From: Phycisphaerae bacterium
GTDB lineage: Bacteria; Planctomycetota; Phycisphaerae; UBA1845
DNA length: 58,144 nt
Direction: 5' to 3'
Assembly (NCBI GenBank): GCA_028282665.1
Contig: JANQHN010000321.1
Location: 1-58,144 of the forward strand
Below are positions 15,644 to 36,900 of the stretch, one piece after another. Each line of letters starts with the position of its first letter. The first letter of the stretch is position 1. The notes under the pieces are model-generated. The model had not been told where the DNA came from. It did not search any database and was given only the letters and a program-made list of their open reading frames with translations. The position numbers and the translations under genes are program-made.

Positions 15644-16723
15644 ATGTACACGCTGAGCAAAGGAGAACGAATTAGCAACTACTTGCTCGAAGCGCCCCTT
15701 GGACAGGGCAGCTTCGGCGAGGTGTGGCGGGCGCGGCATCACGTCTTTGACGATGTCGTGGCAATCAAAATTCCGACCGATCCGCAGTACGTACGTAACT
15801 TGCAGCGGGAAGGTCTTGTCGTACATGGCCTAAAACACCCCAACGTGGTTCGCGCGATCGATCTCGATCCGTACGCCACGCCGCCCTACCTGGTGATGGA
15901 ATTCATTGACGGGCCGACGTTGCGAGAGGCGATTGACAAGCTCAAAGACCGTTTCCCTCTGAAATCAGCCATCGCAATCGAGGAAGGCATCCTGCGCGCA
16001 CTCGATGCGGCGCACAAGACCGGACTTTTGCATCGCGACATCAAGCCGGCCAACATCATGCTGGCTCATCCATTGGATCAGATCGAAACGATTACGCCGG
16101 GCGGCGTAAAAGTCACTGACTTCGGTCTGGGGCGTGTCGGCGGCGATGTAGCGCAGTCCATCCTCATTAGCGGCCAATCTGAAACTGAGGGCGGTCGAAA
16201 CATCTCGGGAACGTTGGCATACATGTCCCCCGAGCAGCGTGAAGGTCGCGACCTCGACGGACGGTCTGATCTCTACGCTTGCGGTGTAGTGCTCTTCGAA
16301 ATGCTGACAGGCGAAAGACCTCAAGGACACGACCTGCCGACCATGTTACGGCGCCAGCTTCCCAAGCAGGTCGATGAATTCTTCAAAAAAGCGTACGCGA
16401 GGCAGGAAAAGCGGTACAAAGATGCCCAGGAAATGATCGACGACCTACTTCGCATCCCCACGGAATTGGTTGTTGCGGATCAGGGAAGCGTTAAATCGCC
16501 TCCTCCCCCGCCACAGACTTGGCCTCCCGGTCATGCTCATAAAAAAGAGGGCATTTGCTCATCTTGCAACACGCCGGTTCTACCTGAGGATCAATTCTGC
16601 ATCGCCTGTGGGCGATGTTTGGTCGAGGTCGTTCCTCGCTGTCCTCAGTGTAATGGATTCGTGGGGCGAAATGATTTGTTCTGCATCTTTTGCGGGCAGG
16701 ACCTGCGCAGGGAAACCGCGTAA
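15644..16723 (+). CDS. Ser/Thr protein kinase with C-terminal double zinc ribbon
   Basis: Kinase motifs GQGSFGEVW, VAIK, HRDIKPANIM, DFGL and GTLAYMSPEQ. The C-terminal CSSCNTPVLPEDQFCIACG...CPQCNGFVGRNDLFCIFCG gives two CxxC-N-CxxC ribbons. Confidence 0.9.
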   Translation: MYTLSKGERISNYLLEAPLGQGSFGEVWRARHHVFDDVVAIKIPTDPQYVRNLQREGLVVHGLKHPNVVRAIDLDPYATPPYLVMEFIDGPTLREAIDKLKDRFPLKSAIAIEEGILRALDAAHKTGLLHRDIKPANIMLAHPLDQIETITPGGVKVTDFGLGRVGGDVAQSILISGQSETEGGRNISGTLAYMSPEQREGRDLDGRSDLYACGVVLFEMLTGERPQGHDLPTMLRRQLPKQVDEFFKKAYARQEKRYKDAQEMIDDLLRIPTELVVADQGSVKSPPPPPQTWPPGHAHKKEGICSSCNTPVLPEDQFCIACGRCLVEVVPRCPQCNGFVGRNDLFCIFCGQDLRRETA

Positions 16724-16729
16724 GGGAGC

Positions 16730-17029
16730 ATGCCGATGAATACTTTAGGTCCAGTACTGCTGATCGCACTGCTGCTTCTTTGTGGAACTGTTATCTTCGG
16801 TGGGATCGCAGTCATTTGGAAACTGTCATCCTGGGTGGGCAGTGGATTTCAGCGAATGTTCGGTGATGACCCCACGCCCCCCATCGGCCATCCGCGTCGC
16901 GGCGGGCCGGTAATGTGCGGCAACCCGCGCTGCGGCAAAGTGGAATACAGACAGGCGAATTATTGCAGCCAGTGCGGGCAAAAACTCCTGCGCGGCTCGA
17001 GACGACACCTGGAGCACGAATACGCATGA
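16730..17029 (+). CDS. single-pass membrane protein with zinc ribbon
   Basis: 99 aa with a TM helix (VLLIALLLLCGTVIFGGIAVIW) followed by CGNPRCGKVEYRQANYCSQCG. The stop overlaps the next start (ATGA at 17026-17029). Confidence 0.65.
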   Translation: MPMNTLGPVLLIALLLLCGTVIFGGIAVIWKLSSWVGSGFQRMFGDDPTPPIGHPRRGGPVMCGNPRCGKVEYRQANYCSQCGQKLLRGSRRHLEHEYA

Positions 17030-18492
17030 CCCTATCCGCCTCCAAAGCCCTTCAACTCGAGACGGAGTTTCTATCCGGCGTCGACAACAAGCTCGAAGGC
17101 GCCAAAGGCAAGCTGCTACGCGGCTCGGTCTGGCAACGCGCCCGCACGGATGAAACTGACCACTTACGCGCTTTGATGGCGAAAAGCCAACTCTTCGACC
17201 GCAATCTGCTCAAGAATCTACCCGCCAACCGCCGTGTCGCCGTCCATGGTTTCGATCGCGTGTTGTTCTTTTGGAAACGGCGCACAGGTATCGCTATTGC
17301 GTCCACGCTTTCACCTCTTTCCCATTACGTCGAGAATCCGGACGAAACGCCGCCTCCAATTGGCTTAGGAGACCTCGCGGACCATGTCCGTAAGCTTGTG
17401 GGCGACCAAAATACACCACACATCATCGGCGTGTGCAGTCCCAGCGGTTTTACGGAGGAAGCTCGTGAAGCAGGCCTAGACTACACAAACGTCCAGCTCG
17501 TGCTAATCGAGCCGGATGGCGCAGGCGGATGGAAAATCACTCCCACAGCGGAGGATGTCGATCCAAGAATTGCCCAGATGTTCGATCCGGAGGGCAGTTC
17601 CGACAAGACGGAACGGATCAAAGCAGCGATTGATGCGAGCAGTTCCGACCTGCTGACAAGCGCAATCGACACGGAGTCGATTGCGAAAATGGTAAAATTG
17701 CCCGAACATCTGGTGGAGCAGGTGTTCGAACAAGTCGCGCAAGCTGATCCGGAACTTCGATTGAGCAAGAAAGATGGCGAGTGTTTGCTATATCGCGGGG
17801 CCCCGGTCGAAACGGTGGAGAAGAAATCGATGAGTATGATCGACCGCATCAAACAACTGTTTTCCCGCGAGGGCGACGAAAACGAGAAGATCAACGTCCT
17901 CTCGGAGCGTCGGGCGGCACTGGCGAAACGTCGGGATCGAATTTACGAGGACATCGGACAACTCGAGAGCAAAGAAGCCTCGTTGCTCGAAGAAGGCAAG
18001 GCCGCGAAGTCGCAGGTACCCAGGCGTCGGATTGCGGCACAGCTCGCACAGGTCCGTAAGGATATCGGTCGGCAGAATACCGTCGCTGCGATGTTGAACC
18101 AGCAGATCAACATCATCAGCACCGACATCCACAACCTCACGCTCATCAAACAGGGTGAGGCCGCCAGCTTGCCCGATACGCAGGAATTGACTGAGAACGC
18201 AGTGAAGGCGGAGGAGATGCTCGAGACGCTGCAGACGGACGCCGAGTTGGTTTCATCACTGGAAACGGGCATGGCAGAGATGAGCACGAGCGAAGAAGAA
18301 CTGGCGATTCTGCGTGAATTCGAGGAGGCGGATAAACCGGATCAAGCGCAGACCACTTCTGCTGCCACCCAATCGATTGCCCCTTCCGCCGCAGCGATCG
18401 ACGACGAATTTGCCGAGTTCGAGCCACCCGCAGACCCCACGCCGCCCTCCTCGGCTCGCAAGGAAAAAACGGGAGATGCGGAGGCGAGTTGA
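17026..18492 (+). CDS. Snf7/ESCRT-III-like protein with large N-terminal extension (Mrr-like region plus winged-helix-like segment)
   Basis: 488 aa from the ATG translationally coupled to the upstream gene. The C-terminal ~170 aa (INVLSERRAALAKRRDRIYEDIGQLESKEASLLEEGK...AAQLAQVRKDIGRQNTVAAMLNQQINIISTDIHNLTLIKQGEAA...EEMLETLQTDAELVSSLE...SEEELAILREFEE) follow the Snf7/CHMP4 helical hairpin and acidic tail pattern. Confidence 0.65.
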   Translation: MTLSASKALQLETEFLSGVDNKLEGAKGKLLRGSVWQRARTDETDHLRALMAKSQLFDRNLLKNLPANRRVAVHGFDRVLFFWKRRTGIAIASTLSPLSHYVENPDETPPPIGLGDLADHVRKLVGDQNTPHIIGVCSPSGFTEEAREAGLDYTNVQLVLIEPDGAGGWKITPTAEDVDPRIAQMFDPEGSSDKTERIKAAIDASSSDLLTSAIDTESIAKMVKLPEHLVEQVFEQVAQADPELRLSKKDGECLLYRGAPVETVEKKSMSMIDRIKQLFSREGDENEKINVLSERRAALAKRRDRIYEDIGQLESKEASLLEEGKAAKSQVPRRRIAAQLAQVRKDIGRQNTVAAMLNQQINIISTDIHNLTLIKQGEAASLPDTQELTENAVKAEEMLETLQTDAELVSSLETGMAEMSTSEEELAILREFEEADKPDQAQTTSAATQSIAPSAAAIDDEFAEFEPPADPTPPSSARKEKTGDAEAS

Positions 18493-18553: not shown

Positions 18554-19159
18554 ATGGCGCTTCTGGACTGGTTGACCAAACGAAACAAACCGCTCTCCAG
18601 GATGACGCGGTCCGAATTGCGCCGCCAAGAACTCCTCCTCGAAAAAGACCGCAATCAGCTTCTGAACAAAATCACCAAAATCGCCAAACAGAAGCAGGAG
18701 CTATTCGCCCGCGGCAAGGAAGAGAAAATTCCTGAAGTGCGTCGCGAACTAGCTCGCGAATTTGAGCTCAAGACAACCGAACAGCTCATGCTCTCTCGCC
18801 AGCTCAACATCCGCAGCAAGGAGATGATCACCGTCTCACGCCTGCGCATGATGCGAGAAAACGCCGACCGGGCAGGCACTAACAAACAGTTAGGCCTGAT
18901 CAGCGAGGCGGACATGTTGCGGCTCGGCAAAATGATCGAGTCCGACGCGATTCGAAGCGAGGTCTACCAGGAACGACTGGACGAAATCCTGCGCATGGGC
19001 CAGGAAGTCGACGAAGGCGGAGCTTCGCTCAGCGACGCCGGCCAGGACGTCATGAATATCTGGGAACGCATGGACACCGGCGCTATCACTGACGAAAACG
19101 AAGCCTTCGAAGAGGCGGACCGCACCGTACGCCAGCGACACGCAGCGCCGGAAGAGTAA
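18554..19159 (+). CDS. ESCRT-III/Snf7-like coiled-coil protein (Vps20/CHMP6-like pattern)
   Basis: 201 aa, basic N-terminal half and acidic C-terminal half. MTRSELRRQELLLEKDRNQLLNKITKIAKQKQELFARGKEEK..VRRELAREFELKTTEQLMLSRQLNIRSKEMITVSRLRMM aligns by eye to the ESCRT-III alpha1-alpha3 core. Confidence 0.6.
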   Translation: MALLDWLTKRNKPLSRMTRSELRRQELLLEKDRNQLLNKITKIAKQKQELFARGKEEKIPEVRRELAREFELKTTEQLMLSRQLNIRSKEMITVSRLRMMRENADRAGTNKQLGLISEADMLRLGKMIESDAIRSEVYQERLDEILRMGQEVDEGGASLSDAGQDVMNIWERMDTGAITDENEAFEEADRTVRQRHAAPEE

Positions 19160-19699: not shown

Positions 19700-20308
19700 A
19701 TGGGACTGTTTAAATCAGCCGAAGAACGACGAATCGAGCGCGACATCAAGATTCGTCAGGGTATTCGTCGCATCGAGAAATCCATTCGTGAGCAAGCGAA
19801 GTTTCAGGATGAATTCATCAAGAACGCCCAACGCGCGAAGCAGATCGGCGACACCGCGCAGTACAACTTCATCCGCAATTCGCTCAAGAAGACCGCGGCA
19901 ATCCGCAAGATGCTCGAGCGGCAATTGCTCTCCGTAAAGAACGCCTTGCTCATCAAGCGGCAGGCGGAGGCAAGTGCCGACTTCGCACAGAGCATGGGCA
20001 TGATGGCCAGCGAAATCGGCAAACTTTTCGGCGAAACGGACCTCGTAAAAACGCAGGCGGACTGGGAGAAGGCGATGGTCCAGTCGCAGACGATGGAGGA
20101 ACGGATGAGCATGTTCCTCGACTCCGTGGAAGACATGGCCAGCCAGGATGTCGAAATGAGCGGCGCGACCGACGTGCTCAGCGACGAAGAAATCGATCGC
20201 ATGATCGAAGCGGAGACCGAGGCGGAACATCAAAAAGAATTGGACAAACTCGCGGGATTGCGGGCGGAACTGGACCAGCTCAAGGGCAAGAGCGAGAAGC
20301 AGAAGTAG
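19700..20308 (+). CDS. ESCRT-III-like protein (Vps2/Vps24/CHMP1-like; PspA superfamily) with C-terminal MIM-like helix
   Basis: 202 aa, starting MGLFKSAEER. It has a basic helical hairpin, a central segment FAQSMGMMASEIGKLFGETDLVKTQADWEKAMVQSQTMEERMSMFLDSVEDM (CHMP-like alpha3-alpha5), an acidic tail and a terminal LAGLRAELDQLKGK. Confidence 0.7.
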   Translation: MGLFKSAEERRIERDIKIRQGIRRIEKSIREQAKFQDEFIKNAQRAKQIGDTAQYNFIRNSLKKTAAIRKMLERQLLSVKNALLIKRQAEASADFAQSMGMMASEIGKLFGETDLVKTQADWEKAMVQSQTMEERMSMFLDSVEDMASQDVEMSGATDVLSDEEIDRMIEAETEAEHQKELDKLAGLRAELDQLKGKSEKQK

Positions 20309-20394
20309 GCTATCGGTCCAAATGACTCGCAATTAGTGGAATACCGATACGCAACCTGGCATTCGCACAAAATACGACACCGGAACCTATACCC

Positions 20395-21513
20395 ATGTCC
20401 GTATCCTTCGCCACATTTGAACGTCTGAAAAACAAGGGCGTATCCTCGTACCAGAAGGGCGACTACCTTGCCGCGAAGAGTTACCTCGTCGACGCGGCCG
20501 AGTGCCTGATCGAACTTGCAGAGAAGGCGAAGACCGACGAAGCACGCCGCCAACACGAAGAACTCGCCGCCGAACTCATCGAACTCGCCAAGGAGGCGGA
20601 CCAAAACCACAAAACCGGCGGAAAAAAGAAGCGTCGCCAGTCCGTCTCCGAAGACGAAAGCGAATCGGACGCCTCCGAGTGGATCGTTAAGGAGAAACCG
20701 GACATCGGCTTCGACGACATCGCCGGTTTGGACGACGTCAAACAGGACATTCGCCTCAAGATGCTCTACCCGTTCAAGCACCCCGAACTCGCTAAAAAAT
20801 ACGGTATTTCGACGGGCGGTGGGGTACTGCTCTACGGCCCGCCGGGCACCGGAAAAACCATGATGGCAAAAGCGATTGCGCACGAGGTCGAGGCGACATT
20901 CTTCGTGATCTCCCCGGCACAAATGCTTAGCAAATGGGTTGGTGAGGCGGAGCAGAACATCAAAAAGCTCTTCGATGCCGCCAAACAGGAAGAAATCGCC
21001 GTCATCTTCATCGACGAAATCGAAGCCCTCGTGCCGCGTCGCAAAAGCGACTCGTCAACGGTGATGCAACGCGTCGTGCCGCAAATTCTCCAGGAACTCG
21101 AAGGCTTCGACCGCAAGTCGGACCGGGCGCTCTTGTTCATCGGAGCGACGAATAAGCCGTGGATGCTGGATGAAGCGATGATGAGACCCGGTCGAATGGA
21201 TGCGCGAATTTACGTTGGCCTACCCGATGGTCCAGCCCGCTTCAAGCTGCTCGAAATCTACCTCGCGCGCAGACCTTTGGATGGCGATGTGAACTTCGGC
21301 ATTTTATGCGACAAACTTGACGGCTATACTGGAGCGGACATCAAGAACATCGCCCAACAGGCAGCCCAGATCCCCTTCATGGAAGCGATCGGCGGCGGCG
21401 AACCCAGGCCGATCTCGATGGCGGATGTCGTCGCGGTCATCGACCAAACTCCACCTTCCGTCCACCCCTCGGATCTTGTGCGATTTGACAAGTTCCGAGC
21501 GGATGGGAAATAA
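20395..21513 (+). CDS. Vps4/CdvC-like AAA+ ATPase with N-terminal MIT-like domain
   Basis: 372 aa. The N-terminal three-helix segment is YQKGDYLAAKSYLVDAAECLIELAEKAKTDEARRQHEELAAELIELAKEA. It then has VKEKPDIGFDDIAGLDDVKQDIRLKMLYPFKHPELA, Walker A GPPGTGKT, the pore loop SKWVGEAEQNIKKLF, Walker B VIFIDEIE and a C-terminal DLVRFDKFRADG. These all parallel archaeal CdvC and eukaryotic Vps4. Confidence 0.85.
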   Translation: MSVSFATFERLKNKGVSSYQKGDYLAAKSYLVDAAECLIELAEKAKTDEARRQHEELAAELIELAKEADQNHKTGGKKKRRQSVSEDESESDASEWIVKEKPDIGFDDIAGLDDVKQDIRLKMLYPFKHPELAKKYGISTGGGVLLYGPPGTGKTMMAKAIAHEVEATFFVISPAQMLSKWVGEAEQNIKKLFDAAKQEEIAVIFIDEIEALVPRRKSDSSTVMQRVVPQILQELEGFDRKSDRALLFIGATNKPWMLDEAMMRPGRMDARIYVGLPDGPARFKLLEIYLARRPLDGDVNFGILCDKLDGYTGADIKNIAQQAAQIPFMEAIGGGEPRPISMADVVAVIDQTPPSVHPSDLVRFDKFRADGK

Positions 21514-23875: not shown

Positions 23876-24730
23876 TCATACACGCTCGCCCGAGTCGGAA
23901 AGTACCCACCCGGCATTTCCATCGGGCAGTTCGATACGCCACCACGCGCCTCGTTCTTCCAACACGGTGAACTCGACGCCCGCCTGGAGAGGTTGGGCGA
24001 ACTGCTTTTGGTACCCCTCACCCGGTCCTTTCCGCACGGTGACGTCGGTGCCGAGAAGGACCGCAGGAGGTGTGCGCTCGTTGCTTTGACGTTCATAAAT
24101 CACGGAACCAATCGACATCGCACAAAACAAGCCCGCAGCTAGAGCGCACCAAGCCACTGCCTGCGAGCGCACGAAATTGCGTATGAGAAGGAGAATCCAA
24201 AGGGCTGCAAACAGCGCGATCGCGGCACGGATTCTACCTCCCATTGTGGTGTCGAAGTGCCAGAACAGCAACGAACGCAACAGTTTGTCCCGGCCTGCAG
24301 TCGCGATTTGATTCACCCGTCGTTCGCGCGCGAGATTCAAGTTGTGTGCGAGGTAGGGGTCGCGCGGGATGAGGCGCTGCGCTCGGCGGTAGTGGAGAAT
24401 GGCCTCACCGATGTCGCCGGCTTGCAAGTAGGCGTTGCCAAGGTTGTATTCGAGTTTCCCGTTTGACACGCCGCGTGCGATGATGGTTTCCAGTTGGGTC
24501 GCGACGTTGCGAAAGATGCGCCTGGCTTCGTCGGGATTTGCTTCAAGCAGAGCTTGCGCTCGGTCAAACTCCTCCAATGCTGCCGCGATGCGTTCCTCGT
24601 CGGCGGGCGCGGCAGCCATCTCCGCCCAAACCGGTGCCGACGTCATCGACAAGACAACAAGCCCAAGAATACGGATGAGCATTGCCTTTAGCGCGGCTGG
24701 TCGCGAATTGGGCGAAAAGACACCAGTCAT
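23876..24730 (-). CDS. batE: BatE-like protein (signal peptide, TPR, TM segments, C-terminal SH3b)
   Basis: 284 aa. Has the TPR LEYNLGNAYLQAGDIGEAILHYRRAQRLIPRD and a C-terminal SH3-like VTVRKGPGEGYQKQFAQPLQAGVEFTVLEERGAWWRIELPDGNAGWV. ATGA overlap with batD. Confidence 0.75.
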   Translation of the reverse strand: MTGVFSPNSRPAALKAMLIRILGLVVLSMTSAPVWAEMAAAPADEERIAAALEEFDRAQALLEANPDEARRIFRNVATQLETIIARGVSNGKLEYNLGNAYLQAGDIGEAILHYRRAQRLIPRDPYLAHNLNLARERRVNQIATAGRDKLLRSLLFWHFDTTMGGRIRAAIALFAALWILLLIRNFVRSQAVAWCALAAGLFCAMSIGSVIYERQSNERTPPAVLLGTDVTVRKGPGEGYQKQFAQPLQAGVEFTVLEERGAWWRIELPDGNAGWVLSDSGERV

Positions 24731-26520
24731 GATTTCGCCACCTCCTTGATAATCGATTCTGCCCGGTCAATAAGGCGATTGGCTTCTTCTTCCGCCCCCC
24801 CCATACCCGCGTAGCTCGCCTGCTCACATTCTCGAATGAAATCCACAACCATCGTTCGTGTTTTGTCTTTTATCCCAAATTCCATAAATCGGGCGTTGAG
24901 TTCTTCACAAGCAAGGTGACCTGTCGGAAGATTTAACCAGTCAGCCACGAAGCGCCCTACCGCCTGACCCGTCTTGTGGATTTTGTCGGCACTCACGGAA
25001 GATCGCCTGGCCTCCTGAAGCATTTCCTTCGCTACCCCGTGCGCTTGACGTCGCCGCGCGTACGCCGGATCGGTGGACAGGCGTTTTCGTCGTAGCGTGA
25101 TAAACGTGACCAGCAAATAAACAGCAGGAGGGAAGCAGAGGGTCGCAGCCCACACCGGTGTCAACAAAAACTGCTGCGACGCGACAAGTCTACTTGCATT
25201 TGCATAGTTGGGCATGATCCCTCCGCTGAGCACCGTGAGTGTCTCGCTCTCGGGTTTAGCCTCTGTCCCATCGGTTAGTTGTATTGCGCCTAGCTGTTTG
25301 GACGGCGGATCGACTACGATGTCCAGTGCGTCGCTACGCAACGTTACGTACGCCTCTTCGACGGGGTCGAAGTAAGACATAGAGAGCGGAGGAATGGTTT
25401 GCTCGCCCTCACGCTTGGGAAACACCGCCTTGCGAAACACTTTCGCATCGTCCTGGAGTTCGCCTACGAGTTCTTCACGCGTGAAGTCAAACCGACTGAC
25501 GAGTTCGGGTTGCAAACTCAGGTCCGGTCCGGGGGCGCCTGCGATCGGATCGCCTTGAAGCTCGATTGTAATGGTGACGGGTTCGCCCAGTTCGATGCGC
25601 TGCGGCTTGGCGCTAACATTCATATCGTACCGGCCAATCGCGCCTACGTAGTCGGCAGGTTTGCCATTCTCCGGCGGCGCTTTGACGACGACAATAATCG
25701 CATCGGCCCGAGCAGTAGCACGCTCAGCATCCACCACGGTCAGTTCGCCCCAAATGTTTCGTCGCACTGCGGTTGGATAGTTGACCCGTGCGAAGATCGG
25801 ACCGATTTGCGCTTGACCGGGATCGGCTGCTACGAAGTCAACGGTAAAATGGAAGACTTTGTACGCGTGCCGTTCACCATCCGAATCAGTCAGCCAAGTT
25901 TGTCTGTAAGTGCCTTGCCTCTGTCGAATCACATCCAAAAAAATGCCAAACTTTGATCGCTCAAGATCCAGAACATTGCGTATCAGATCGATATCCACAA
26001 CCTGGCCGCGCTGGGTGAATTCGCGAATGTAGAGTTTCAGTGTGGCACGATAGGTTTGTGTCACATAAACAGCATCCGGAAAGACCTCCAACTCCACGAA
26101 GACGAGGCTTTCGGATTTGGGCTTGATAGTCGGCTCGCGTACGAAAACGTTGGTCGTATCCGTGGTGTATTCCCGCCCATCGGCCGTAACAGTGAACGGA
26201 CCTACCTCGTAGCTGCCCGCTTTGGATGCGGTGAGGCTGAGGAAATAGGTGTAGGTAGCCCGTTCGGTGCGGCGTCCGTTGACGATGCTGACCATCGACC
26301 GCTGCGAAGGATTGGGGTTCAAAAGCTGAATTTCCAAATTTTCCCGCGCAACAACCTGAGGAGCAGACGGCACACCGGTGTTGGTGCAAACCAACTGCAC
26401 CAGCACGGGTTCGCCAACCTCAATCGACTTCGATTGAATGTTCACCGTTACGCCAGGCGACTGTGCGAAAACCGCCGAGGCGATGCATAACGATACGAAA
26501 AAAAACGCGTATTTGGACAT
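24727..26520 (-). CDS. batD: BatD-like (oxygen tolerance family) protein
   Basis: 597 aa with a signal peptide, repeated beta-rich segments, one late TM helix and a cytoplasmic tail. Its position between BatC and BatE is as in the Bacteroides Bat operon. Confidence 0.75.
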   Translation of the reverse strand: MSKYAFFFVSLCIASAVFAQSPGVTVNIQSKSIEVGEPVLVQLVCTNTGVPSAPQVVARENLEIQLLNPNPSQRSMVSIVNGRRTERATYTYFLSLTASKAGSYEVGPFTVTADGREYTTDTTNVFVREPTIKPKSESLVFVELEVFPDAVYVTQTYRATLKLYIREFTQRGQVVDIDLIRNVLDLERSKFGIFLDVIRQRQGTYRQTWLTDSDGERHAYKVFHFTVDFVAADPGQAQIGPIFARVNYPTAVRRNIWGELTVVDAERATARADAIIVVVKAPPENGKPADYVGAIGRYDMNVSAKPQRIELGEPVTITIELQGDPIAGAPGPDLSLQPELVSRFDFTREELVGELQDDAKVFRKAVFPKREGEQTIPPLSMSYFDPVEEAYVTLRSDALDIVVDPPSKQLGAIQLTDGTEAKPESETLTVLSGGIMPNYANASRLVASQQFLLTPVWAATLCFPPAVYLLVTFITLRRKRLSTDPAYARRRQAHGVAKEMLQEARRSSVSADKIHKTGQAVGRFVADWLNLPTGHLACEELNARFMEFGIKDKTRTMVVDFIRECEQASYAGMGGAEEEANRLIDRAESIIKEVAKS

Positions 26521-27516
26521 TTACCAATCCTTCTTCTCATTACGCGGCGCCGGCTGGGCGGGCACGTACTCGACACGGTCCTGTTTACGGCGGCGCATCT
26601 CGTCGATCAGTTGACGCAATTGACGCAAGGCCTGCTCCAGCGACTCCTCATTGGGCTCGGCCTGCTGCGGCGTGGCTTGTGGTTGTTGTTCATCCTCACC
26701 TTGTGGCGCCTGCTGCCGCTCAGTCTCCTGCGCTTGATCCCGTTGCTGTTGATCTTGATTTTGCTGCGATTCCTGTCGCTCGCTGGATTGGTCCTGCTGT
26801 TGTTGATTCTGCTGGCTTTGTTGCTGATCCTGTTGTGGGTCCTGTTGCTCTTGATTGTCGTTTTGTTGTTGATCCTGCTGTTGTTGCTGCTGGATCTCCT
26901 TGAGTTGTCTCCAGACAGTGCCAGCCTTGTAATTGGCTTCCCGGGCGGCAGCGTGACCAGGGTTGGCCCCCAATACATCCTGGTAACCACGCATGGCGCG
27001 TTCGAACGAACTGATCGCTGCCTGCGGGTCGTCGCCCTGTTCGAGCGCTTGCAAGTGATCCGCCGCAGCCCGAGCGAACATCGCGTCATCCGCCAGCTTG
27101 CGATCTTCACCATAAGCAGCCTTCTCAAACGCGGCGCGCGCTTTGTCGTATTCTTTTAGGCGTAAATGACCAAGGCCCGTGTTGAAATCGATCTCCTTAG
27201 CGTCCGGCAGCTTTTCACGAGCAGCCAAGTATGCATCCAACGCTTCACGAAGTTTTTCCGCCTCAAATAGCGCGTTTCCTTCACTCACAAGTTTACGCGC
27301 GTTCGCCCGTTCGGAACGCGAAGCAGGTGCCTCTCGATCCACTTCTGATGCAGTTGCCGGATCGGCAGATTGTGTTTCTTCCGTCCTTCCCGGTTCATTA
27401 GCGATGGGCAAATTGCTCGAACTCGATGTAGCTTGCGCGTAACCGAGATCCGGCGACATCAACAATCCGCCTGCGACGCAAAAAGCGAACAAGGCGTATC
27501 GGCTGCATTCGCTCAT
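26521..27516 (-). CDS. batC: BatC-like TPR protein with Q-rich C-terminal tract
   Basis: 331 aa from ATG 27516 (ATGA overlap with the batB stop, GGAGGGAG upstream). Has a signal peptide, TPR units (LVSEGNALFEAEKLREALDAYLAAREKLPDA...), then ~80 aa dominated by Q/D/E. Confidence 0.75.
   Translation of the reverse strand: MSECSRYALFAFCVAGGLLMSPDLGYAQATSSSSNLPIANEPGRTEETQSADPATASEVDREAPASRSERANARKLVSEGNALFEAEKLREALDAYLAAREKLPDAKEIDFNTGLGHLRLKEYDKARAAFEKAAYGEDRKLADDAMFARAAADHLQALEQGDDPQAAISSFERAMRGYQDVLGANPGHAAAREANYKAGTVWRQLKEIQQQQQQDQQQNDNQEQQDPQQDQQQSQQNQQQQDQSSERQESQQNQDQQQRDQAQETERQQAPQGEDEQQPQATPQQAEPNEESLEQALRQLRQLIDEMRRRKQDRVEYVPAQPAPRNEKKDW
26661..26895 (-). repeat. coding low-complexity CAG/CAA (Gln)-rich tract
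   Basis: The plus strand is ctg/ttg-rich (ctgctgttgttgattctgctggctttgttgctgatcctgttg...). It encodes QQQQQQDQQQNDNQEQQDPQQDQQQSQQNQQQQDQ... Confidence 0.8.
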
Positions 27517-28679
27517 GATTCTCCCTCCTGCTGCCACGTTCGCGTTGGCAGGTCTGCAGTCGATCTGCGCCGCTCGCTAATAAACGGCTCAACGCACAGC
27601 AGTGCAATGCAGGCTGCAAGAAACCATTGATAGCGTGGCCTGGTTCGCTCGCGACGTTCGGTCGTCAACAACTCCCGGTGCATATCCGCGATCCCCTCGA
27701 CCACCCAGGACAGGTGCTCCAAGGGGGTATAACGTCCTTCACCCACTTCCGCGATGCGAGACAAACCCTGCGGGTCGATTTTGGAAAAGACGATTTTACC
27801 TTCGTACACGAGCGGCTTGGCTTTAGGTGTGTCATCGCTAGGCACTTCCGCGCCGGCGGCCAGCGTCGGATCCCCCGCTCCAACAGTGAAGGTTCGCACA
27901 CCGTCTTCCTGATAGACGGTCTGGGCGGCGGCAATGGGGTCGCCCTCGTGATCCTCGCCGTCTGTAACGATCAAGATAATTTTTGTCGCCTTTTCCGGCG
28001 AGGAAGCGAAAAACTCGGCGGCGGCGTAGATCGCTTCCGCGATCGCGGTTCCACCTTGAGGCGCGCTGCGAATGTCAACCTTATCCAACGTATCACGGAA
28101 AAAAGCGTGGTCGAGACTTAAAGGCACCTTCATCGAAGTGGCTCCCGCGAACACGAGCAATCCCAGCCGGTTCGATCGGTTGAACAGATTCCGCTCGGTC
28201 AATTGCCTTCGAAGTTCTTCTTTGGCGCGGGTAAGGCGGTTGGGCGAAAGGTCGCGGGCGAGCATCGAACGTGACACATCCAGGGCAACCACGACATCCA
28301 CGCCATACGCCTCTTCCTCCTCGATGTACACTCCCCATCGCGGCCCGACAATTGCGGCAATGAGCAGCACAAATGCCGTCATCACCAAGCAGGCGCGAAC
28401 GACCTGCCTGCTGGAAATAAATCGTGTACCCAACAGCGGCGCGAGCGCAGCAGAAGTGAATCGAGTAAGTGCCCTCCGTTTGCGATACAGCCCCCACACA
28501 TAGAGCAAGCTGGCTATCGGAACTACGCATATCAGCCACAAAAGATCGAAATTGTCGAAAGGCCAATCTCCAATCTCTGTGAGCAAAATTGCGCAAAGAC
28601 CCGCAAACGCCAACGCGACGGGCCAAATCAGCACCCACACAACCCAGGCTGCTTTTGCGTATATCTTTTCTGGCGTCAC
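27513..28679 (-). CDS. batB: VWA domain protein BatB
   Basis: 388 aa with N-terminal TM helices and a VWA MIDAS motif (VVVALDVSRSM ... IILIVTDGEDHEG). Four-nt overlaps on both sides. Confidence 0.85.
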   Translation of the reverse strand: MTPEKIYAKAAWVVWVLIWPVALAFAGLCAILLTEIGDWPFDNFDLLWLICVVPIASLLYVWGLYRKRRALTRFTSAALAPLLGTRFISSRQVVRACLVMTAFVLLIAAIVGPRWGVYIEEEEAYGVDVVVALDVSRSMLARDLSPNRLTRAKEELRRQLTERNLFNRSNRLGLLVFAGATSMKVPLSLDHAFFRDTLDKVDIRSAPQGGTAIAEAIYAAAEFFASSPEKATKIILIVTDGEDHEGDPIAAAQTVYQEDGVRTFTVGAGDPTLAAGAEVPSDDTPKAKPLVYEGKIVFSKIDPQGLSRIAEVGEGRYTPLEHLSWVVEGIADMHRELLTTERRERTRPRYQWFLAACIALLCVEPFISERRRSTADLPTRTWQQEGES

Positions 28680-29773
28680 GGCACCGTCCTAAATCGCGTA
28701 TTGATCAACAGCACCTCAAAAAACAGTAAACCCAATCCAATGAGCATCGCGTATCGCGCTGCCTGCGTGTCATCGCGATACGCACGATCGCCGGTAGCCT
28801 GCCGTTCAAGCTTGTCGATCTGCTCGTAAATTTGCGTGAGTGAACGAGTATCCATCGCTCGGAAATACGCGCCGCCGGTAGTGCTGGCGATACGCTTGAG
28901 CGTGGGTTCATCCACACGGTCAGTTCGACCAAATCCGGGTAACATCCTTGTCTGCCCAATGGCACCGATTGTGTAAATCTTGATGTCAAATTTTGCCGCA
29001 AGCTTGGCTGCCTCGACCGGATTGGGTACGGATTCCCGGAATTCCCTAGGTGGATTGTCAGACCCATCCGTGAGCAGGATCATCACTTTGCTCTTCGCGG
29101 CCTCTGCGCCGGGCAATCCCAAACGTGCTTGCTCACCCGCTCGACGCAGTTCGTGCGTTGCGAGAGTGATGGCGCTCCCCAACGACGTGTGCATGGATTC
29201 AGGATGTTCCCATCGCTGTTGTCCGTTGATCCACCCGGGGATTTCCGTCGCTCTTAACAACTCGGCAAGGTTGGCATGATCGAGAGTTAGCGGGCATCGC
29301 GTATCGGCGTAGTAAGCAAACGTCGTCATACCAATAAGATCGTTAGGCCTGCCCGGGAGCCTGTCGGTCCCGAGCACAAAATCGCGAAACACCTTCTTCA
29401 CCGCGTCAATGCGGCGGACCCGCTTGCCGTCGATGACAAAGTCCTGATCGGACATGCTGCCCGATACGTCGAGAACCATCTGAATCGCAATACCTTCCCG
29501 CGATTCCGCAACCTCTCCACCCATCTTCGGTCGCGCGAGGGCAAAAACCAGAGCAAGGATCGCACAGATGCGGATAAAAGGTACAATCCAACGAATACGT
29601 GTGACAAAGCTGGGTGAGACGCGCTTTACGAAGGCCAATGATGAGAACCTTATCGTTGGTGGCTTAGTCGCAAGATAACGAACCCATATAAGCGGTGCGA
29701 ATAACAAAAACACTACACAAAGCACACCGAAGATAAATCCCGGTTGAAAACGTTCGAACAATTGATCGATCAT
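28676..29773 (-). CDS. batA: VWA domain protein BatA
   Basis: 365 aa from ATG 29773 (ATGA overlap with the upstream stop). Has TM helices, VWA motifs (IQMVLDVSGSM ... VMILLTDGSDN) and a C-terminal TM. Confidence 0.85.
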   Translation of the reverse strand: MIDQLFERFQPGFIFGVLCVVFLLFAPLIWVRYLATKPPTIRFSSLAFVKRVSPSFVTRIRWIVPFIRICAILALVFALARPKMGGEVAESREGIAIQMVLDVSGSMSDQDFVIDGKRVRRIDAVKKVFRDFVLGTDRLPGRPNDLIGMTTFAYYADTRCPLTLDHANLAELLRATEIPGWINGQQRWEHPESMHTSLGSAITLATHELRRAGEQARLGLPGAEAAKSKVMILLTDGSDNPPREFRESVPNPVEAAKLAAKFDIKIYTIGAIGQTRMLPGFGRTDRVDEPTLKRIASTTGGAYFRAMDTRSLTQIYEQIDKLERQATGDRAYRDDTQAARYAMLIGLGLLFFEVLLINTRFRTVP

Positions 29774-31032
29774 CGCCGCGCCTCCTCCAAAGTGGATGCA
29801 GGCACTTCCGCCGGAGACGATGTCGCGTCCAAACACTCAGCCTCGCCCGGAGACGGTTTCGTTTCGTGAACGAAACGGGCGGCAGCCGTAACGCCATTGT
29901 CGCACTCCTCGACGGCCGGTTCGTGCAACGCGTACTTCGCAAGCTCTGCCGCAGTCAAAAATGCACTCAGGTAATCCCGTTGAAGACCGGTGAACCGGGT
30001 CGTACGTGAAACTTCGACGAGAAATTCCTCGGTTGTCATCTCAGGAGCGAGCAGCATGAAACGGCGTTCGATGTACTCGCGTACGATCGCGGAGAGGCGA
30101 TAATAGTACTCCTGAATCATGCCCTTCGCAGGCAGGTTTTGTTCCTTCAATTTCTCGAGTTGTTGCAAAGCGTATTTGTGTGGCGCGATCGGAGTCGCCA
30201 TGCGAATCTTTCGGTACGTGAGCCAATAAACGATAGCCCAAATTAATACCCCCATCACCAAACACCCACCTGCGAAGATCGCCGGCAACAACCACCAGTG
30301 CCTTTGCAAAATGCTCGGTTCAGCGGTCAATTCGACCGGCATTGGCAGGGGCACATCGTTCACGTCCTCACTAATGAGCGTTTCCTTTTCCGGTTCTTTA
30401 ACGGTGATAAGAAACTCGTCAAGATGCAATTCGCACGTCACCGCTGATGGCATGCCCGTTTCAGGCTGCGATTGCTTATCGCCAGAAGCTTTGTCACTCG
30501 TTTCACCTTCGTCTTTTGGCGAGGCAGTTCTCGGCGTGTAGTTCGCTCGCATGTCCAGCGGCCCAATTTCGTATTCCCCCGGGAGGAAGAAATCGACCGC
30601 GATGGTTCGTCGCTTGGCGAGCCGACCATCGTCGAGAACGATGTCGGGCGACTTGAGTGTCGAGTTGATTTTATATTCAAACGGCTTGTCGGCAAACAAC
30701 TTTTCTACCGGATCGAACGAAAAGGTCGAGCCCACCGGCATGATCGCTTCCACTTCGACTTGAAGCAACTCACCGAAGGTCAGCGCATCTTGACGAACGC
30801 GAAAACTCAACTCGAACGGATCAGCCACAGCCTGACGTTTGATGGCGTGGTCGACTTTCTCAGCCACAGAATTCGCAGACGGACCACATCCCGCAACCAC
30901 CAGAAGAAACGCGAAAGCGGCACAGTCGAGACGCAAAGCGCACAGCCTCCACACTCGCCGATCAAATCGGCGCGAATCCTTCGCTCGACAACGGACGATA
31001 CATCCTACGATGAGGCTCGTCGGATTTCGCAA
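29770..31032 (-). CDS. membrane/lipoprotein of the Bat operon (DUF4381-like position)
   Basis: 420 aa from TTG 31032, with AAGGAG 9 nt upstream. Has the lipobox LLVVAGC, a mid-protein TM (WWLLPAIFAGGCLVMGVLIWAIVYWL) and a helical cytoplasmic tail. The start is uncertain (alternative GTG 30954). Confidence 0.6.
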   Translation of the reverse strand: MRNPTSLIVGCIVRCRAKDSRRFDRRVWRLCALRLDCAAFAFLLVVAGCGPSANSVAEKVDHAIKRQAVADPFELSFRVRQDALTFGELLQVEVEAIMPVGSTFSFDPVEKLFADKPFEYKINSTLKSPDIVLDDGRLAKRRTIAVDFFLPGEYEIGPLDMRANYTPRTASPKDEGETSDKASGDKQSQPETGMPSAVTCELHLDEFLITVKEPEKETLISEDVNDVPLPMPVELTAEPSILQRHWWLLPAIFAGGCLVMGVLIWAIVYWLTYRKIRMATPIAPHKYALQQLEKLKEQNLPAKGMIQEYYYRLSAIVREYIERRFMLLAPEMTTEEFLVEVSRTTRFTGLQRDYLSAFLTAAELAKYALHEPAVEECDNGVTAAARFVHETKPSPGEAECLDATSSPAEVPASTLEEARR

Positions 31033-32994: not shown

Positions 32995-33909
32995 GAAAGG
33001 GGACTCCTTCAAATCGTTCTTCTCTTGAAAAATTCACCCTGGATTGGGCACTGGTTTGCGGGTCGTGCTCCGCCCGCGGATAGAGACGCAATGTAACGAA
33101 GATACCTGTCAATGGGGCAGTTGAAACGTCGGCGCGGTACAATCTTGTGACACTTTCCAATTGACACACCGCCCCGCAGAAAGTGACACTGCAATATGCG
33201 CGTGATTAATCGCTCTTCCAGACAACAGCGGGCTGACAAGCGGTTCAACTTCAACCACATCCCCAATGCGCAAATAGCGATTTGTCAAAGAGACCGGCAG
33301 GTAAGTATTTGAGAGTATTTTACGAACTATTAACTGTATCTCAACGGACTACCTTGAGCAAGCCAATCTGGATTTGATATAGTGTCCCTTTAGCTTAGGG
33401 CGTTCTTCAACGAATTTAATATCACCATCATGATGTCTATTTTAACGGTGTATGGTGAGTTGAATTAAGGAGTGATCTTGAACAGCAATGGCAAGGTATC
33501 CCGCTGATGCCTTTAGTAAGTGATCCATTCGTTCAACATAGATCATTCATGCGGTGATAGACACGCTCGCAGCCGACAAAAGGACGACAGGGAATGGGCA
33601 ACTGTAAGGAAGCCTCGGGTCGGGCTTCCGAAACGGACTCACCGGTTTCAATTCTGATTCTGCGTGTATGGACGAAATCGCCATCCTAGCGCAAGAAGAA
33701 ACAGTCGTCTACAAAAGTATGCGGTCTCGCGCGGTCTCTTCGCGCACATGACTTATGGCTATGGAAGGATTCGTGAGCACAAGTGCAATTTGTGGTTCTA
33801 GGGTCGTGTGGCGGATTGTACTGGTAGAAACGAAGTCCCACGAATGAACTGGGGCTCATGGATGAAACACAGCGTCCCCTTCGCTTGGGACTGGAGGTGG
33901 AGGAAAATT

Positions 33910-36900
33910 ATGACAAACCGAGTCATTTGGGCAGTCGGCGTGCCTATGGTTTTTGCGTTTTTAGGTATTCTCTCGACGCAGATTAACGTTTTCGATTTTG
34001 AACAAACGGCGAACGCGCAGCTAGCTCCAGGGGCTTCTAACGAAATAGGTGATCCTCCCTCGACACCAAGCCATTCTCCGACTCAAAGCGAAGAAGTGAA
34101 AGAACCAACCGAACCTGCCCATAACCAAAACACTGACAACTTCGCACCGCGCGCGCTGCCGGTGGCAGATGCGAGCGGTCCATACGTTTGTCTTCCGGAA
34201 AATCGTGACGACGCCGGTTGGACGTTTACGTTCGACGGCAGCGGTTCCTCAGCTGACGGTTTTATCGAAAACTGGCTTTGGGAATTTCCAGTTCAGACAT
34301 TTGATGGGCATTGGCTGAACACTTACGAATGGATCACCCTTAGCGCGTACAACGATGATGCACTACATTTGCGTGGCACCAACGCTTGGAGTTCCGCTTA
34401 CGCTGTAACCAGAGAAAAAATCGTTCGCCAAGAGGGCGCCTCATTTCGCGCTCGCGTGACGTATCACGGCACTGACACCGTATGGGGATTCAAAAACACC
34501 ACTAACATCTACCATCACAACGCATTTGACTACGGCATCTATTTGCACTCGGACGGTAACCTCTACGTTTACGAGAATGGTGCAAATCGCGGGTTGCGAG
34601 GCAATTTCACCATTGGCGAGCCGATCGATCTGCGTGTTGATTTAAAGCAGGATGGTGGAGCGATTTATTACGCGAAGTATCCGGAGGAAGATTGGGAAGG
34701 ACACATTATCTACGATTCGACTCATTCGACCTTGAATCTTCTCCGTGCAGGTGCCACGGTCCACAACGGCCTGCTTATGATTGACGACGTACAACTCTTC
34801 CTCGGTGGCGAGACTGTTTCGCACAAAGTATACGAGCCCGGCACCGTCACACTGACGGTGACCGACGATATCGGTCAAAAAGCCAGCGACATCGCGGAGA
34901 TCGTTGTCGAAAATCCGGAATTGACTCCCGACGCGGGCGGTCCCTATATGGGAACGGAAGCCACGCAGGTCGACGCAGGATGGATCTTCGACTTTGACGC
35001 AAGCGCCACATTGACGCCATTCGAAATTATTGAGACTCACTGGGATCTTGGCTACGACACCTTCCCAGGGCAGTGGCTCAATCCTTACAAGTGGAACTCC
35101 GCTGGTGTCTACGCAAACGACGGCGCCATCCTGAATGGCCCGAACAACTGGAATCACACCCACCTTGTCCGTCAAGACGCCATTCCTCGAACAACGGGCG
35201 CGTTCGTGGAAATTCGGGCAACATTGAACAATACCTACGCGGTATTCGGCCTGAAAGCAGACACGACGATCTACCATTACAACCAGTACCATTACTGCAT
35301 CATGTCCTCCACGGACAACCAGATATACATTTACGAAGGTGGTACTCATCGAGCAACGCCAGCCAGTTACATTCCGGGCGAAGTTTACGATCTTCGAATT
35401 GAGGTGAAACAAGATCGGGGAGCCCGCTACTTCATGAAACTCGCAAGCGAGGAGGAGTGGGCCACGATTTATGATTCGCCTCACGACAATGCCATGTCGT
35501 TTCACCCGGCGGTCACGGTCCACACCGGTCAGTATGTAATCCACAGCTGGCAGGAATCGTTCTGGGGTAGCCCTGCCAACTACAAAATCTATGCCGAGAC
35601 CGCAGGCATGCTGACGGTGACAGATTCCAATCGTCAATCAGCCTCCGTTCCGTTCGATGTCGAAGTCGATCCTCCAACACCAACGGCCGATGCGGGCGGT
35701 CCCTACGCCATTTCCGAGGCTGATTTCGATACAGTTGTCAACGGTTACTTAGTAGATCTCGACGCAACCAATTCAACAGGCGGCCATGAGATTGTGCGGT
35801 ACGAGTGGGATTTCGGCCCGGATACCTTCGACGGCATGTTTTTCGATTTCGGCGCTTACTACGGCTCGGGTGCGTGGCAAAGTGACGGCGCGTACATCGC
35901 CGGTGTCAATGGGTGGAACAATCGCTACCTGTTTAGCAAACACCCTGTCGAGCGTGCTGGCGGCGCTTACGTGGAGGCCAGCATCGTCTCGGACGGCGGG
36001 CACGCCATGTGGGGCTTGAAGACGAATAACACGAACTTTCACTACAACCAGCTCGCTTACGCATTCTACTTCGTGAGTGGAGGACAAGTCCACATCTACG
36101 AAAACGGTACCTCCCGTGGGTACTTTGCCGACATCACGCCGGGCGAAACCTACCAGGTAGCCATCGTACTCAAGAATGTGTCCGGCGCTTCGTACTACCT
36201 CAAGCACGCAGACGATACGGATTGGACACTGGTCTACGACTCGGCCCACAGTTCGGTAAGCGGCTTGCTGCCAGGCGTTACAGTGAACAGCGGCGTGTTC
36301 AACATCGCCAGCCTATCCCAGACTTATTATGGCCCAACAACCCAGCACAGGATCAGCGAGCCGACAAGCGTTACACTAAATGTTGCCGACATTTTGAACC
36401 AGACTTCGACCGAGACCGTAGCCATCGACATCGTTGGCTCGGGTCCAATTGCCGACTCTGGCGGTCCACTCATGCTCAGTGAAGCGGAACTTTTGGGCTC
36501 AGGTTACGCTTCCTTGGCGCTGGACGCTTCCGGCTCGAGCGACGACTTCGAAATTGCCAAGTACCAGTGGGATCTGGGCACATTGACGTTCGATGGACAA
36601 CTCCACAGTCAAGTATGGCTTTTTGCCGGAGCAAACGTCAGTGGAGGCGAACTGCAACTTACGGGTACAGGAGGATGGGGCGGCCATCACTTCTTTAGTC
36701 GAGTGCCGGCCGTCCGCGCAGATGGCACGATCTTCGAATGCAAGGTCAGACCGGGCAATGGCGTGGCGATGTTCGGATTCAAGAACACCTCGACCAACTA
36801 CAGCTACACGCAATTGCCTTACGCAATCTACTTCAACAATTCAACTGCATATATCTACGAGGACGGCGCATCGCGAGGCGCGGTAACCGGTTACGATCCA

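Follow-up and report, generated by a model that had tools for sequence, protein, structure and literature searches.

Does a bacterium of the Planctomycetota encode an ESCRT-III-type polymer protein together with its own Vps4-like ATPase? The question is raised by a 58,144-nucleotide contig of a Phycisphaerae bacterium (GenBank assembly GCA_028282665.1, contig JANQHN010000321.1; the whole of this stretch is referred to here as the window), in which a gene for a 202-amino acid (aa) protein is followed on the same strand by a gene for a 372-aa AAA ATPase. A first-pass annotation, made from the sequence alone, had proposed that the two products form a dedicated disassembly machine, in which a MIT-interacting motif (MIM1) at the C-terminus of the upstream protein is matched to an MIT domain at the N-terminus of the ATPase. 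Our analysis favors, at a probability of roughly 0.55, the reading that the gene cluster containing this pair is a bacterial ESCRT-III/Vps4-like membrane-remodeling module. The features of the pair are as follows.

19700-20308, + strand: Snf7/ESCRT-III-family protein of 202 aa, by family profile and AlphaFold2 (AF2) fold
19700-19717, + strand: N-terminal MGLFKS motif of the 202-aa protein, a candidate membrane-insertion or H0-like element
20240-20290, + strand: C-terminal amphipathic helix of the 202-aa protein (aa 181-197), with MIM1-like hydrophobic spacing and without the MIM1 arginine
20395-21513, + strand: AAA ATPase of 372 aa with a single cassette, starting 86 bp after the 202-aa gene
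20395-20622, + strand: N-terminal three-helix domain of the ATPase (aa 1-76), TPR/MIT-like, from the AF2 model
20623-20685, + strand: ATPase linker (about aa 77-97), predicted as disordered, charged and variable in length, from model confidence and ortholog insertions and deletions
20686-21513, + strand: AAA cassette, lid and C-terminal helix (Pfam AAA, Vps4_C)
20836-20859, + strand: Walker A of the cassette
20929-20946, + strand: pore loop SKWVGE of the cassette
21004-21018, + strand: Walker B of the cassette
21184-21201, + strand: RPGRMD motif of the cassette
about 21466-21504, + strand: terminal helix of the cassette

We assign the 202-aa protein to the Snf7/ESCRT-III family proper, at the family level and through transitive homology. 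Its relatives number about 2,800 at 90% clustering and 315 clusters at 50%. When 50 diverse relatives were searched individually, 30 matched Pfam Snf7 (PF03357), the best at 1.1e-7, and several relatives carry precomputed matches to the same model. The profile of the family, when compared with the PDB, placed CHMP2A first (1e-4) and CHMP3 second (4e-4), followed by three rows of Helicobacter pylori CagA (0.001-0.002) and then by Snf7, CdvB and CHMP1B. Structure prediction was consistent with this placement. The AF2 model, built on a 43-sequence alignment with a mean predicted local distance difference test (pLDDT) score of 73, contains helices at residues 7-49, 52-110, 115-151 and 162-201, with the hairpin at pLDDT 84-92, and is an open ESCRT-III layout as predicted: hairpin, alpha-3/4, linker, alpha-5 and C-terminal helix all appear in it. 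A Foldseek search with the model returned CHMP2A at the top (probability 1.00, TM score 0.69 on the target), and the ESCRT-III superfamily made up 19 of the top 20 matches, with weak E-values as is usual for all-helical folds. At the N-terminus, M1, F4, K5 and S6 of the MGLFKS motif were invariant or nearly so in two family alignments, and the motif is retained in the distant homologs encoded on three other contigs (L081, L083 and L085). Position 1 of the family profile aligns to residue 3 of CHMP3 (3frv), and CHMP3 itself also begins with MGLF. An identity as PspA was considered for the 202-aa protein and rejected: PspA_IM30 was unmatched, and PspA/Vipp1 proteins were not among the profile matches and stood low in the Foldseek ranking.

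The C-terminal tail of this protein was examined for its relationship to MIM1. The 202-aa product does end with LAGLRAELDQLKGK (residues 184-197, exactly nucleotides 20249-20290), as had been reported. The published MIM1 consensus is [DE]xxLxxRLxxL[KR], whose arginine has been called central (PMC12057046), and the window tail does not match it: L187, L191, L194 and K195 fall in register, while E190 occupies the Arg position and L184 position 1. The earlier statement that the tail closely parallels MIM1 was in this respect too strong. Among 161 family members, the strict consensus was found in none, a relaxed form in one, and a minimal LxxR-hydrophobic-xxL pattern in eight; the window tail fits none of the three. 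What the family does share with MIM1 is a Leu-rich C-terminal amphipathic helix with i, i+4, i+7 spacing. A hydrophobic triad of this spacing was present within the last 35 residues of 152 of the 161 members, compared with about 32 of 161 shuffled tails, a difference of approximately five-fold. At tail positions 181, 187, 191 and 194, a hydrophobic residue was found in 74-100% of the members of each identity band, the one below 40% included, with the positions of L187, L191 and L194 at 88-100%; D182 was retained in 68-84%, and the residues preceding it (171-180) were variable. Distant tails share the same register (...ELDDAIDQGLADVRKELGKE, ...DDLANIDKELENLRKK..., ...FDAEIEEGLKEIEKLKGKG), and a helix is predicted in this region by AF2 at a pLDDT of about 66-73. 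The terminal helix was kept in orthologs and distant homologs alike, and this part of the earlier claim, which hinged on such conservation, held. MIM1-like helices rich in Leu/Ile are known from Vps2/24/46 subunits of Asgard archaea and eukaryotes; crenarchaeal CdvB is without MIM1 and uses a proline-rich MIM2 (PMC7240154). Judged from its sequence, the tail occupies the MIM1 position of a CHMP2/3-like subunit; it is an amphipathic terminal helix that is conserved, in a variant that lacks the arginine.

The architecture of the ATPase is Vps4-like: a small N-terminal domain, a linker, a single AAA cassette and a terminal helix follow one another, the pore loop is of the K-W-hydrophobic-G-E type, and the gene adjoins that of an ESCRT-III protein. 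The motifs GPPGTGKT (aa 148-155), SKWVGEAE (aa 179-186) and DLVRFDKF (aa 360-367) were all located as annotated; the KEKP..F motif is also present, within VKEKPDIGFDDIAGLDDVK at aa 98-116, with three residues between KEKP and F rather than the two originally written. The description of the protein as following CdvC/Vps4 motif for motif was accurate as to the presence of the motifs, which are, however, common to Cdc48 D2 and other classic-clade AAA proteins and not specific to Vps4. Pfam AAA was matched at 3.7e-41, Vps4_C at 24.0 bits (cut-off 21.3) through model positions 27-58 only, corresponding to the terminal helix, and AAA_lid_3 at 24.2 bits, under its cut-off of 27.2. The best NCBIfam model was CdvC (4.6e-72, residues 15-365 aligned to model positions 18-362 of 370); its 243 bits were far under the 650-bit cut-off of this curated equivalog (NF041006). 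The AF2 model, based on 28 orthologs (pLDDT 72), contains N-terminal helices at residues 5-20, 24-43 and 48-73 (pLDDT 79-90), a disordered stretch at residues 76-96 (pLDDT below 50), the AAA cassette, and a terminal helix at 358-370; the linker region also displays large insertions and deletions among the orthologs. The top Foldseek match of the whole model was Metallosphaera sedula Vps4 (4d82; 39% identity, E 1.2e-20). The pore loop sequence SKWVGEAE was invariant in the 28 orthologs and was recovered in the distant homologs of L083 and L085, with SKYVGESE in that of L081. A K-W pair in pore loop 1 is characteristic of Vps4. Overall, the architecture is Vps4-like; the sequence scores do not single out Vps4/CdvC as the orthologous family, since Cdc48 models score equally well.

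The ATPase's N-terminal domain had been described in the first-pass annotation as a three-helix MIT-like segment. The three helices were predicted by AF2, and the number and length of the helices and the linker that follows fit the MIT layout; no MIT match was obtained by Pfam or by profile. A profile of the domain matched consensus tetratricopeptide repeat (TPR) proteins in the PDB at 1.8e-4, through a GxxxYxxGDYxxAxxYLxxA motif, and the sole MIT domain returned was that of a chitin synthase (2mpk) at an E-value of 0.92; the single N-domain sequence gave no significant MIT match in the PDB. The Foldseek search was run with the whole ATPase model, and its matches were dominated by the AAA domain. 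As a control, the authentic MIT domain of VPS4A was searched in the same way and also matched TPR proteins (PP5 at 0.005, and CTPR designs). Because an authentic MIT domain behaves in this manner, a TPR-like sequence does not refute an MIT-like fold. The domain is thus MIT-like in its predicted layout and undetectable as MIT by sequence.

The pairing of the two genes was examined across genomes. At least one relative of the 202-aa protein was encoded in 319 species genomes, and the homologs were labeled Phycisphaerae or Planctomycetota. Synteny was counted in the best 80 genome loci, all from metagenome-assembled genomes of Phycisphaerae/Planctomycetota, within 8 kb of the 202-aa gene, which in these best loci is 74-89% identical to the window copy. 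The ATPase gene was present in 58 of the 80 loci, accompanied by the genes for a 201-aa protein (69), a 488-aa protein (66), a Ser/Thr protein kinase (62) and a PspC-domain protein (53). Gene order was uniform across the Phycisphaerae loci, with the ATPase either directly downstream of the 202-aa gene or 0.5-4 kb away with genes inserted. Beyond these loci, a second Planctomycetota clade (45% identity; L083) has the order 493-aa protein, 226-aa protein, 203-aa protein, Snf7-like protein and AAA protein, and a kinase is found near the cluster in L083 and L084 as well. A metagenome contig of 35% GC content (L081, 1788-12183) encodes a Band7/SPFH protein with a zinc ribbon, a 114-aa protein, a 197-aa protein, a Snf7-like protein of 199 aa and an ATPase of 493 aa with AAA and Vps4_C domains and a C-terminal extension. 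The SPFH and zinc-ribbon partner parallels archaeal ESCRT neighborhoods (PMC11188069). This module is bordered by a gene for a TIR protein of 1347 aa on one side and by trypsin-like and BrxL-like genes on the other, an arrangement with the look of a defense island. In L085 (1003-3923), the Snf7-like gene is placed between two different AAA ATPase genes, of 399 and 377 aa; both of these ATPases can be aligned with the CdvC model from end to end. In L081, L083 and L085 the Snf7-like gene and the ATPase gene are 1-4 bp apart, compared with 86 bp in the window, and in all the pairing recurs in at least four divergent contexts of 34-58% GC. Our strongest argument is this recurrent tight linkage across very distant bacteria, which argues that the ATPase is dedicated to the Snf7-like protein and is not a generic AAA protein; the first-pass annotation had argued in the same direction from a cognate MIM-MIT pair encoded by adjacent genes. 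The 202-aa family was not found on viral contigs.

The data above establish the family of the 202-aa protein, the domain plan of the ATPase, and the conservation of the tail and of the gene pairing. For the module we infer polymerization, membrane binding, docking of the ATPase N-domain on the tail, disassembly and a cellular role, in the following manner. The Snf7-family protein would polymerize on the cytoplasmic face of the inner membrane via its conserved MGLFKS element, a candidate for membrane insertion or an H0-like function, and may be recruited or sensed by the adjacent small PspC protein. As its dedicated remodeler would serve the single-ring AAA ATPase encoded downstream: the three-helix N-domain would dock on the amphipathic helix conserved at the C-terminus of the Snf7-like subunit, whereupon the flexible linker would pass the subunit to the hexamer pore with its SKWVGE loop, and the pore would extract it from the polymer at the expense of ATP. 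The 201-aa and 488-aa proteins would be conserved accessory or co-polymer components, and the Ser/Thr kinase a likely regulator. A MIM1-MIT "handshake" between the tail and the N-domain is plausible within this scheme.

The remaining genes of the cluster, which reads 5' to 3' as kinase, zinc-ribbon open reading frame (ORF), 488-aa protein, 201-aa protein, PspC protein, Snf7-like protein and AAA ATPase, are listed below.

15644-16723, + strand: Ser/Thr protein kinase with C-terminal zinc ribbons (Pfam Pkinase 4e-37; DZR and Zn_Ribbon weak), opening the conserved cluster
16730-17029, + strand: small predicted membrane protein with a zinc ribbon (DZR/Zn_ribbon_3 weak), uncertain as a gene
17026-18492, + strand: 488-aa protein with a globular N-terminal half, a coiled-coil C-terminal half, a conserved EELAILxEFE helix and a variable Pro/Ala tail
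18554-19159, + strand: 201-aa conserved helical protein, syntenic in 69 of the 80 loci at 60-78% identity
19372-19572, + strand: 66-aa PspC-domain membrane protein (Pfam PspC 2.2e-24; NCBIfam PspC 3.9e-15, under its cut-off)

The zinc-ribbon ORF was detected by tblastn in 29 of the 80 loci, at 29-56% identity. For the 488-aa gene, the mechanical ORF list gives a product of 525 aa from a GTG at 16915, 111 nucleotides further upstream; the ATG at 17026 is the likely start, since it overlaps the TGA stop codon of the zinc-ribbon ORF as ATGA (17026-17029), an arrangement that suggests translational coupling of the two genes. The Pfam scan assigned the 488-aa protein to no family, and its coiled coil gave no significant match to ESCRT-III by profile against the PDB or by Pfam (CdvB at an E-value of 0.27). 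Its N-terminal half, a globular domain of about 200 aa, shares 24% identity (E 2e-12) with the C-terminal half of the 493-aa protein encoded in L083 and is homologous to it. The domain shared by the 488-aa protein (window 17026-18492) and the 493-aa protein (L083:4068-5549) ends in a winged-helix-like part, and the order of domains differs between the clades; the N-terminus of the 493-aa protein is a MerR-type helix-turn-helix. The 201-aa protein matched nothing significantly in the PDB or Pfam. A homolog of it, the 197-aa protein, adjoins the Snf7-like gene in L081 (E 8e-5). With the 202-aa family, hhalign aligned the 201-aa protein collinearly but only weakly (pairwise E 0.003, probability 9%). 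The possibility that the 201-aa and 488-aa proteins are additional ESCRT-III paralogs was considered and set aside, as hhalign against the 202-aa family, profiles against the PDB, and Pfam were all non-significant.

A scan for promoters and terminators returned nothing informative on the operon boundaries. The surroundings in the window are those of an ordinary chromosome, with a Bat operon, a methyltransferase, kinases, TPR proteins and a giant ORF. The Bat-like operon (BatD, a VWA protein, TPR proteins and a protein with TPR and SH3 domains) occupies 23876-29836 on the - strand, about 2.4 kb past the cluster, and the giant ORF, a single frame of 5196 aa, spans 33808-49398 on the + strand. 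The DinB and GDPD genes directly 3' of the ATPase are not kept beside the cluster in other genomes.

A number of observations weigh against the interpretation of the cluster as an ESCRT-III/Vps4-like module and are considered here together. With regard to the polymer protein, the 202-aa window sequence on its own had no Pfam or PDB match, and none to Pfam Snf7 (PF03357) at an E-value of 1 or below; its tail carries a glutamate, E190, where the central arginine of MIM1 is expected. With regard to the N-domain of the ATPase, Pfam MIT (PF04212) was not matched by any of 10 N-domains at an E-value of 10 or below, hhalign against the verified MIT domains of VPS4A/B was non-significant (E 0.08-0.1), and the domain resembles a TPR unit by sequence. 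The cassette is nearly as close to other classic-clade proteins: the CDC48 and PAN models of NCBIfam score almost level with CdvC on the window ATPase, CdvC scores 212-243 bits on four distant homologs and is outscored by CDC48 in three of them, and the Foldseek runners-up were PAN (37% identity) and p97 D2 (35%), leaving the core near-equally close to each. The AF2 model is also without a beta-domain, and the second region of homology carries an RPGR-type motif like that of Cdc48 and PAN, whereas Vps4 has the RRRF type. The confidence of the two AF2 models is no more than moderate (pLDDT 72-73), and in about one third of the loci other genes separate the 202-aa gene from the ATPase.

Part of this evidence would also fit a functional pair in which recognition is not MIT-MIM-like. 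The C-terminal helix would then serve for autoinhibition or for packing between subunits (alpha-6), the ATPase would reach the polymer via the 201-aa or 488-aa proteins or by direct pore capture of a disordered segment, and the TPR-like N-domain would bind something else. The absence of the strict and minimal MIM1 patterns from the window tail and the best matches of the N-domain to TPR consensus proteins, with Pfam MIT unmatched, agree with this alternative, as do the 201-aa partner, which is conserved with the pair as widely as the ATPase, and the acidic amphipathic helix (EELAILxEFE) that the 488-aa protein has of its own. We regard it as possible but doubtful: the MIT domain of VPS4A is also TPR-like by sequence (PP5 at 0.005), and the tail helix stands at the exact MIM1 site of Vps2/24/46-class subunits, after an acidic linker and alpha-5 (PMC7240154). 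That the ATPase is instead a generic Cdc48-like unfoldase of protein quality control, with its adjacency to a Snf7-like gene incidental, is the least probable of the explanations weighed. Cdc48/p97 does take the top sequence scores in the PDB, CDC48 is the top NCBIfam model in three of the four distant homologs, and public orthologs bear the labels "transitional endoplasmic reticulum ATPase" or "ATP-binding protein". However, the two genes are paired, 1-4 bp apart, in no fewer than four divergent contexts of 34-58% GC content, and a single cassette with a small three-helix N-domain differs from the double-psi-barrel N-domain, D1 and D2 of Cdc48.

An anti-phage or abortive-infection system, in which the Snf7-like protein would be a membrane effector under the control of an IetA/IteA-like AAA ATPase, was likewise considered and appears very unlikely. 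The ATPase has moderate matches to PADLOC IetA (1.2e-36) and NCBIfam IteA (1.8e-32), and the L081 homolog is flanked by the TIR protein, the trypsin-like protease and the BrxL-like gene. Yet these matches lie far under the cut-off (113 vs 510 bits for IteA) and reflect general AAA similarity; the PADLOC and PHROGs scans gave generic AAA and kinase similarity only, and the non-ATPase proteins of the cluster match no PADLOC defense model. Among the Phycisphaerae the cluster is a core locus, syntenic and highly conserved (74-91% identity for the 202-aa protein, with a relative in 319 species genomes), which is unlike patchy defense islands; its context in the window is ordinary chromosome, and viral copies were not found.

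A more specific role for the cluster, as the FtsZ-independent cytokinesis or membrane-scission machinery of Phycisphaerae and a bacterial counterpart of the crenarchaeal Cdv system, whether acquired from archaea or ancestral, is unlikely, though the following observations lean toward it. Planctomycetes are without ftsZ, and Phycisphaerae divide by binary fission, with the driver unknown (PMC6952346). The cluster is highly conserved in this class as a core locus. Seven of the eight long homologs tested carry an FtsK/SpoIIIE ATPase domain (Pfam 1.6e-26 to 2.9e-5) behind an N-terminal Snf7-like domain of about 180 aa; these fusions point toward division- or segregation-type motors. We came across no report in which an ESCRT-III-like domain is covalently linked to a motor of the FtsK type. 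The fusions are:

L087:1338-2873: Snf7-FtsK fusion (P0218)
P0231, P0237, P0240, P0242, P0253 and P0260: further Snf7-FtsK fusions

Taken as an ESCRT-III/Vps4-like module, the cluster provides a chromosomal pair of a Snf7-proper protein and a Vps4-like ATPase that is conserved across one bacterial class and has related pairs in unrelated bacteria. It is a candidate for how the FtsZ-less Planctomycetes remodel or divide membranes. If this interpretation is correct, the cluster would offer a bacterial model for ATP-driven turnover of ESCRT-III and would bear on whether the pairing of ESCRT-III with an AAA protein predates archaea or was spread by gene transfer. The cluster challenges the view of recent reviews that bacteria are without such a pairing; a 2025 review stated that a Vps4-like ATPase "appears absent in bacteria", which leaves the regulation of bacterial ESCRT-III-like polymers unexplained (PMC7619361). 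Our literature search for a described ESCRT-III/Vps4 system of Planctomycetota found none. Ravi et al. (2024) reported transfers of VPS4-like genes to bacteria with snf7 displaced, as well as some bacterial associations of Snf7/PspA with AAA+ proteins (PMC11237479). In their cases snf7 is displaced by a gene with TPR and six transmembrane segments, or the ATPase has two AAA domains, or components of ABC transporters are present, in contrast to the arrangement described here, and their main text mentions neither Planctomycetes nor a kinase-PspC-Snf7-ATPase cluster (PMC11237479).

Among characterized systems, the archaeal Cdv/ESCRT-III-Vps4 machinery (CdvB with CdvC, and its Asgard counterparts) is similar in that (i) a Snf7-family gene lies directly upstream of a single-cassette, classic-clade AAA gene; (ii) the N-domain of the ATPase is small and helical, its linker flexible, its pore loop aromatic and its terminal helix of the Vps4_C type; and (iii) the operon encodes more helical partners. 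By structure, the window ATPase is matched best by archaeal Vps4, and among the NCBIfam models by CdvC. The cluster differs from archaeal Cdv in its bacterial (Planctomycetota) host, in an N-domain undetectable as MIT, in the absence of the beta-domain, and in a CdvC score of 243 vs 650 bits; no CdvA or ESCRT-II genes were recognized in it, and its partners are instead a PspC protein and a Ser/Thr kinase. The tail is a Leu-rich helix, in contrast to the proline-rich MIM2 of crenarchaeal CdvB (PMC7240154). The resemblance of the 202-aa protein is to the eukaryotic and Asgard Vps2/Vps24/CHMP2-3 class, of which CHMP2A and CHMP3 are the best profile and fold matches and with which it shares the N-terminal MGLF, the hairpin, alpha-3/4, an acidic linker, alpha-5 and a terminal Leu-rich i/i+4/i+7 helix followed by Lys. 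Compared with the MIM1 of this class, the arginine and the leading acidic residue are out of register. The bacterial phage shock protein (Psp) system (PspA/Vipp1, PspB/PspC and PspF) is similar in having an ESCRT-III-superfamily gene beside a PspC gene and an AAA+ protein in the locus. The polymer-forming protein differs in being of the Snf7 type and not PspA_IM30, which by Pfam was matched by no protein of the cluster despite the presence of the PspC domain, and the ATPase differs in being of the classic-clade unfoldase type rather than a sigma-54 activator such as PspF. By analogy, a role in envelope stress or membrane maintenance shared with the Psp system is plausible, and the PspC link would join Psp-type stress sensing with a polymer of the archaeal and eukaryotic type.

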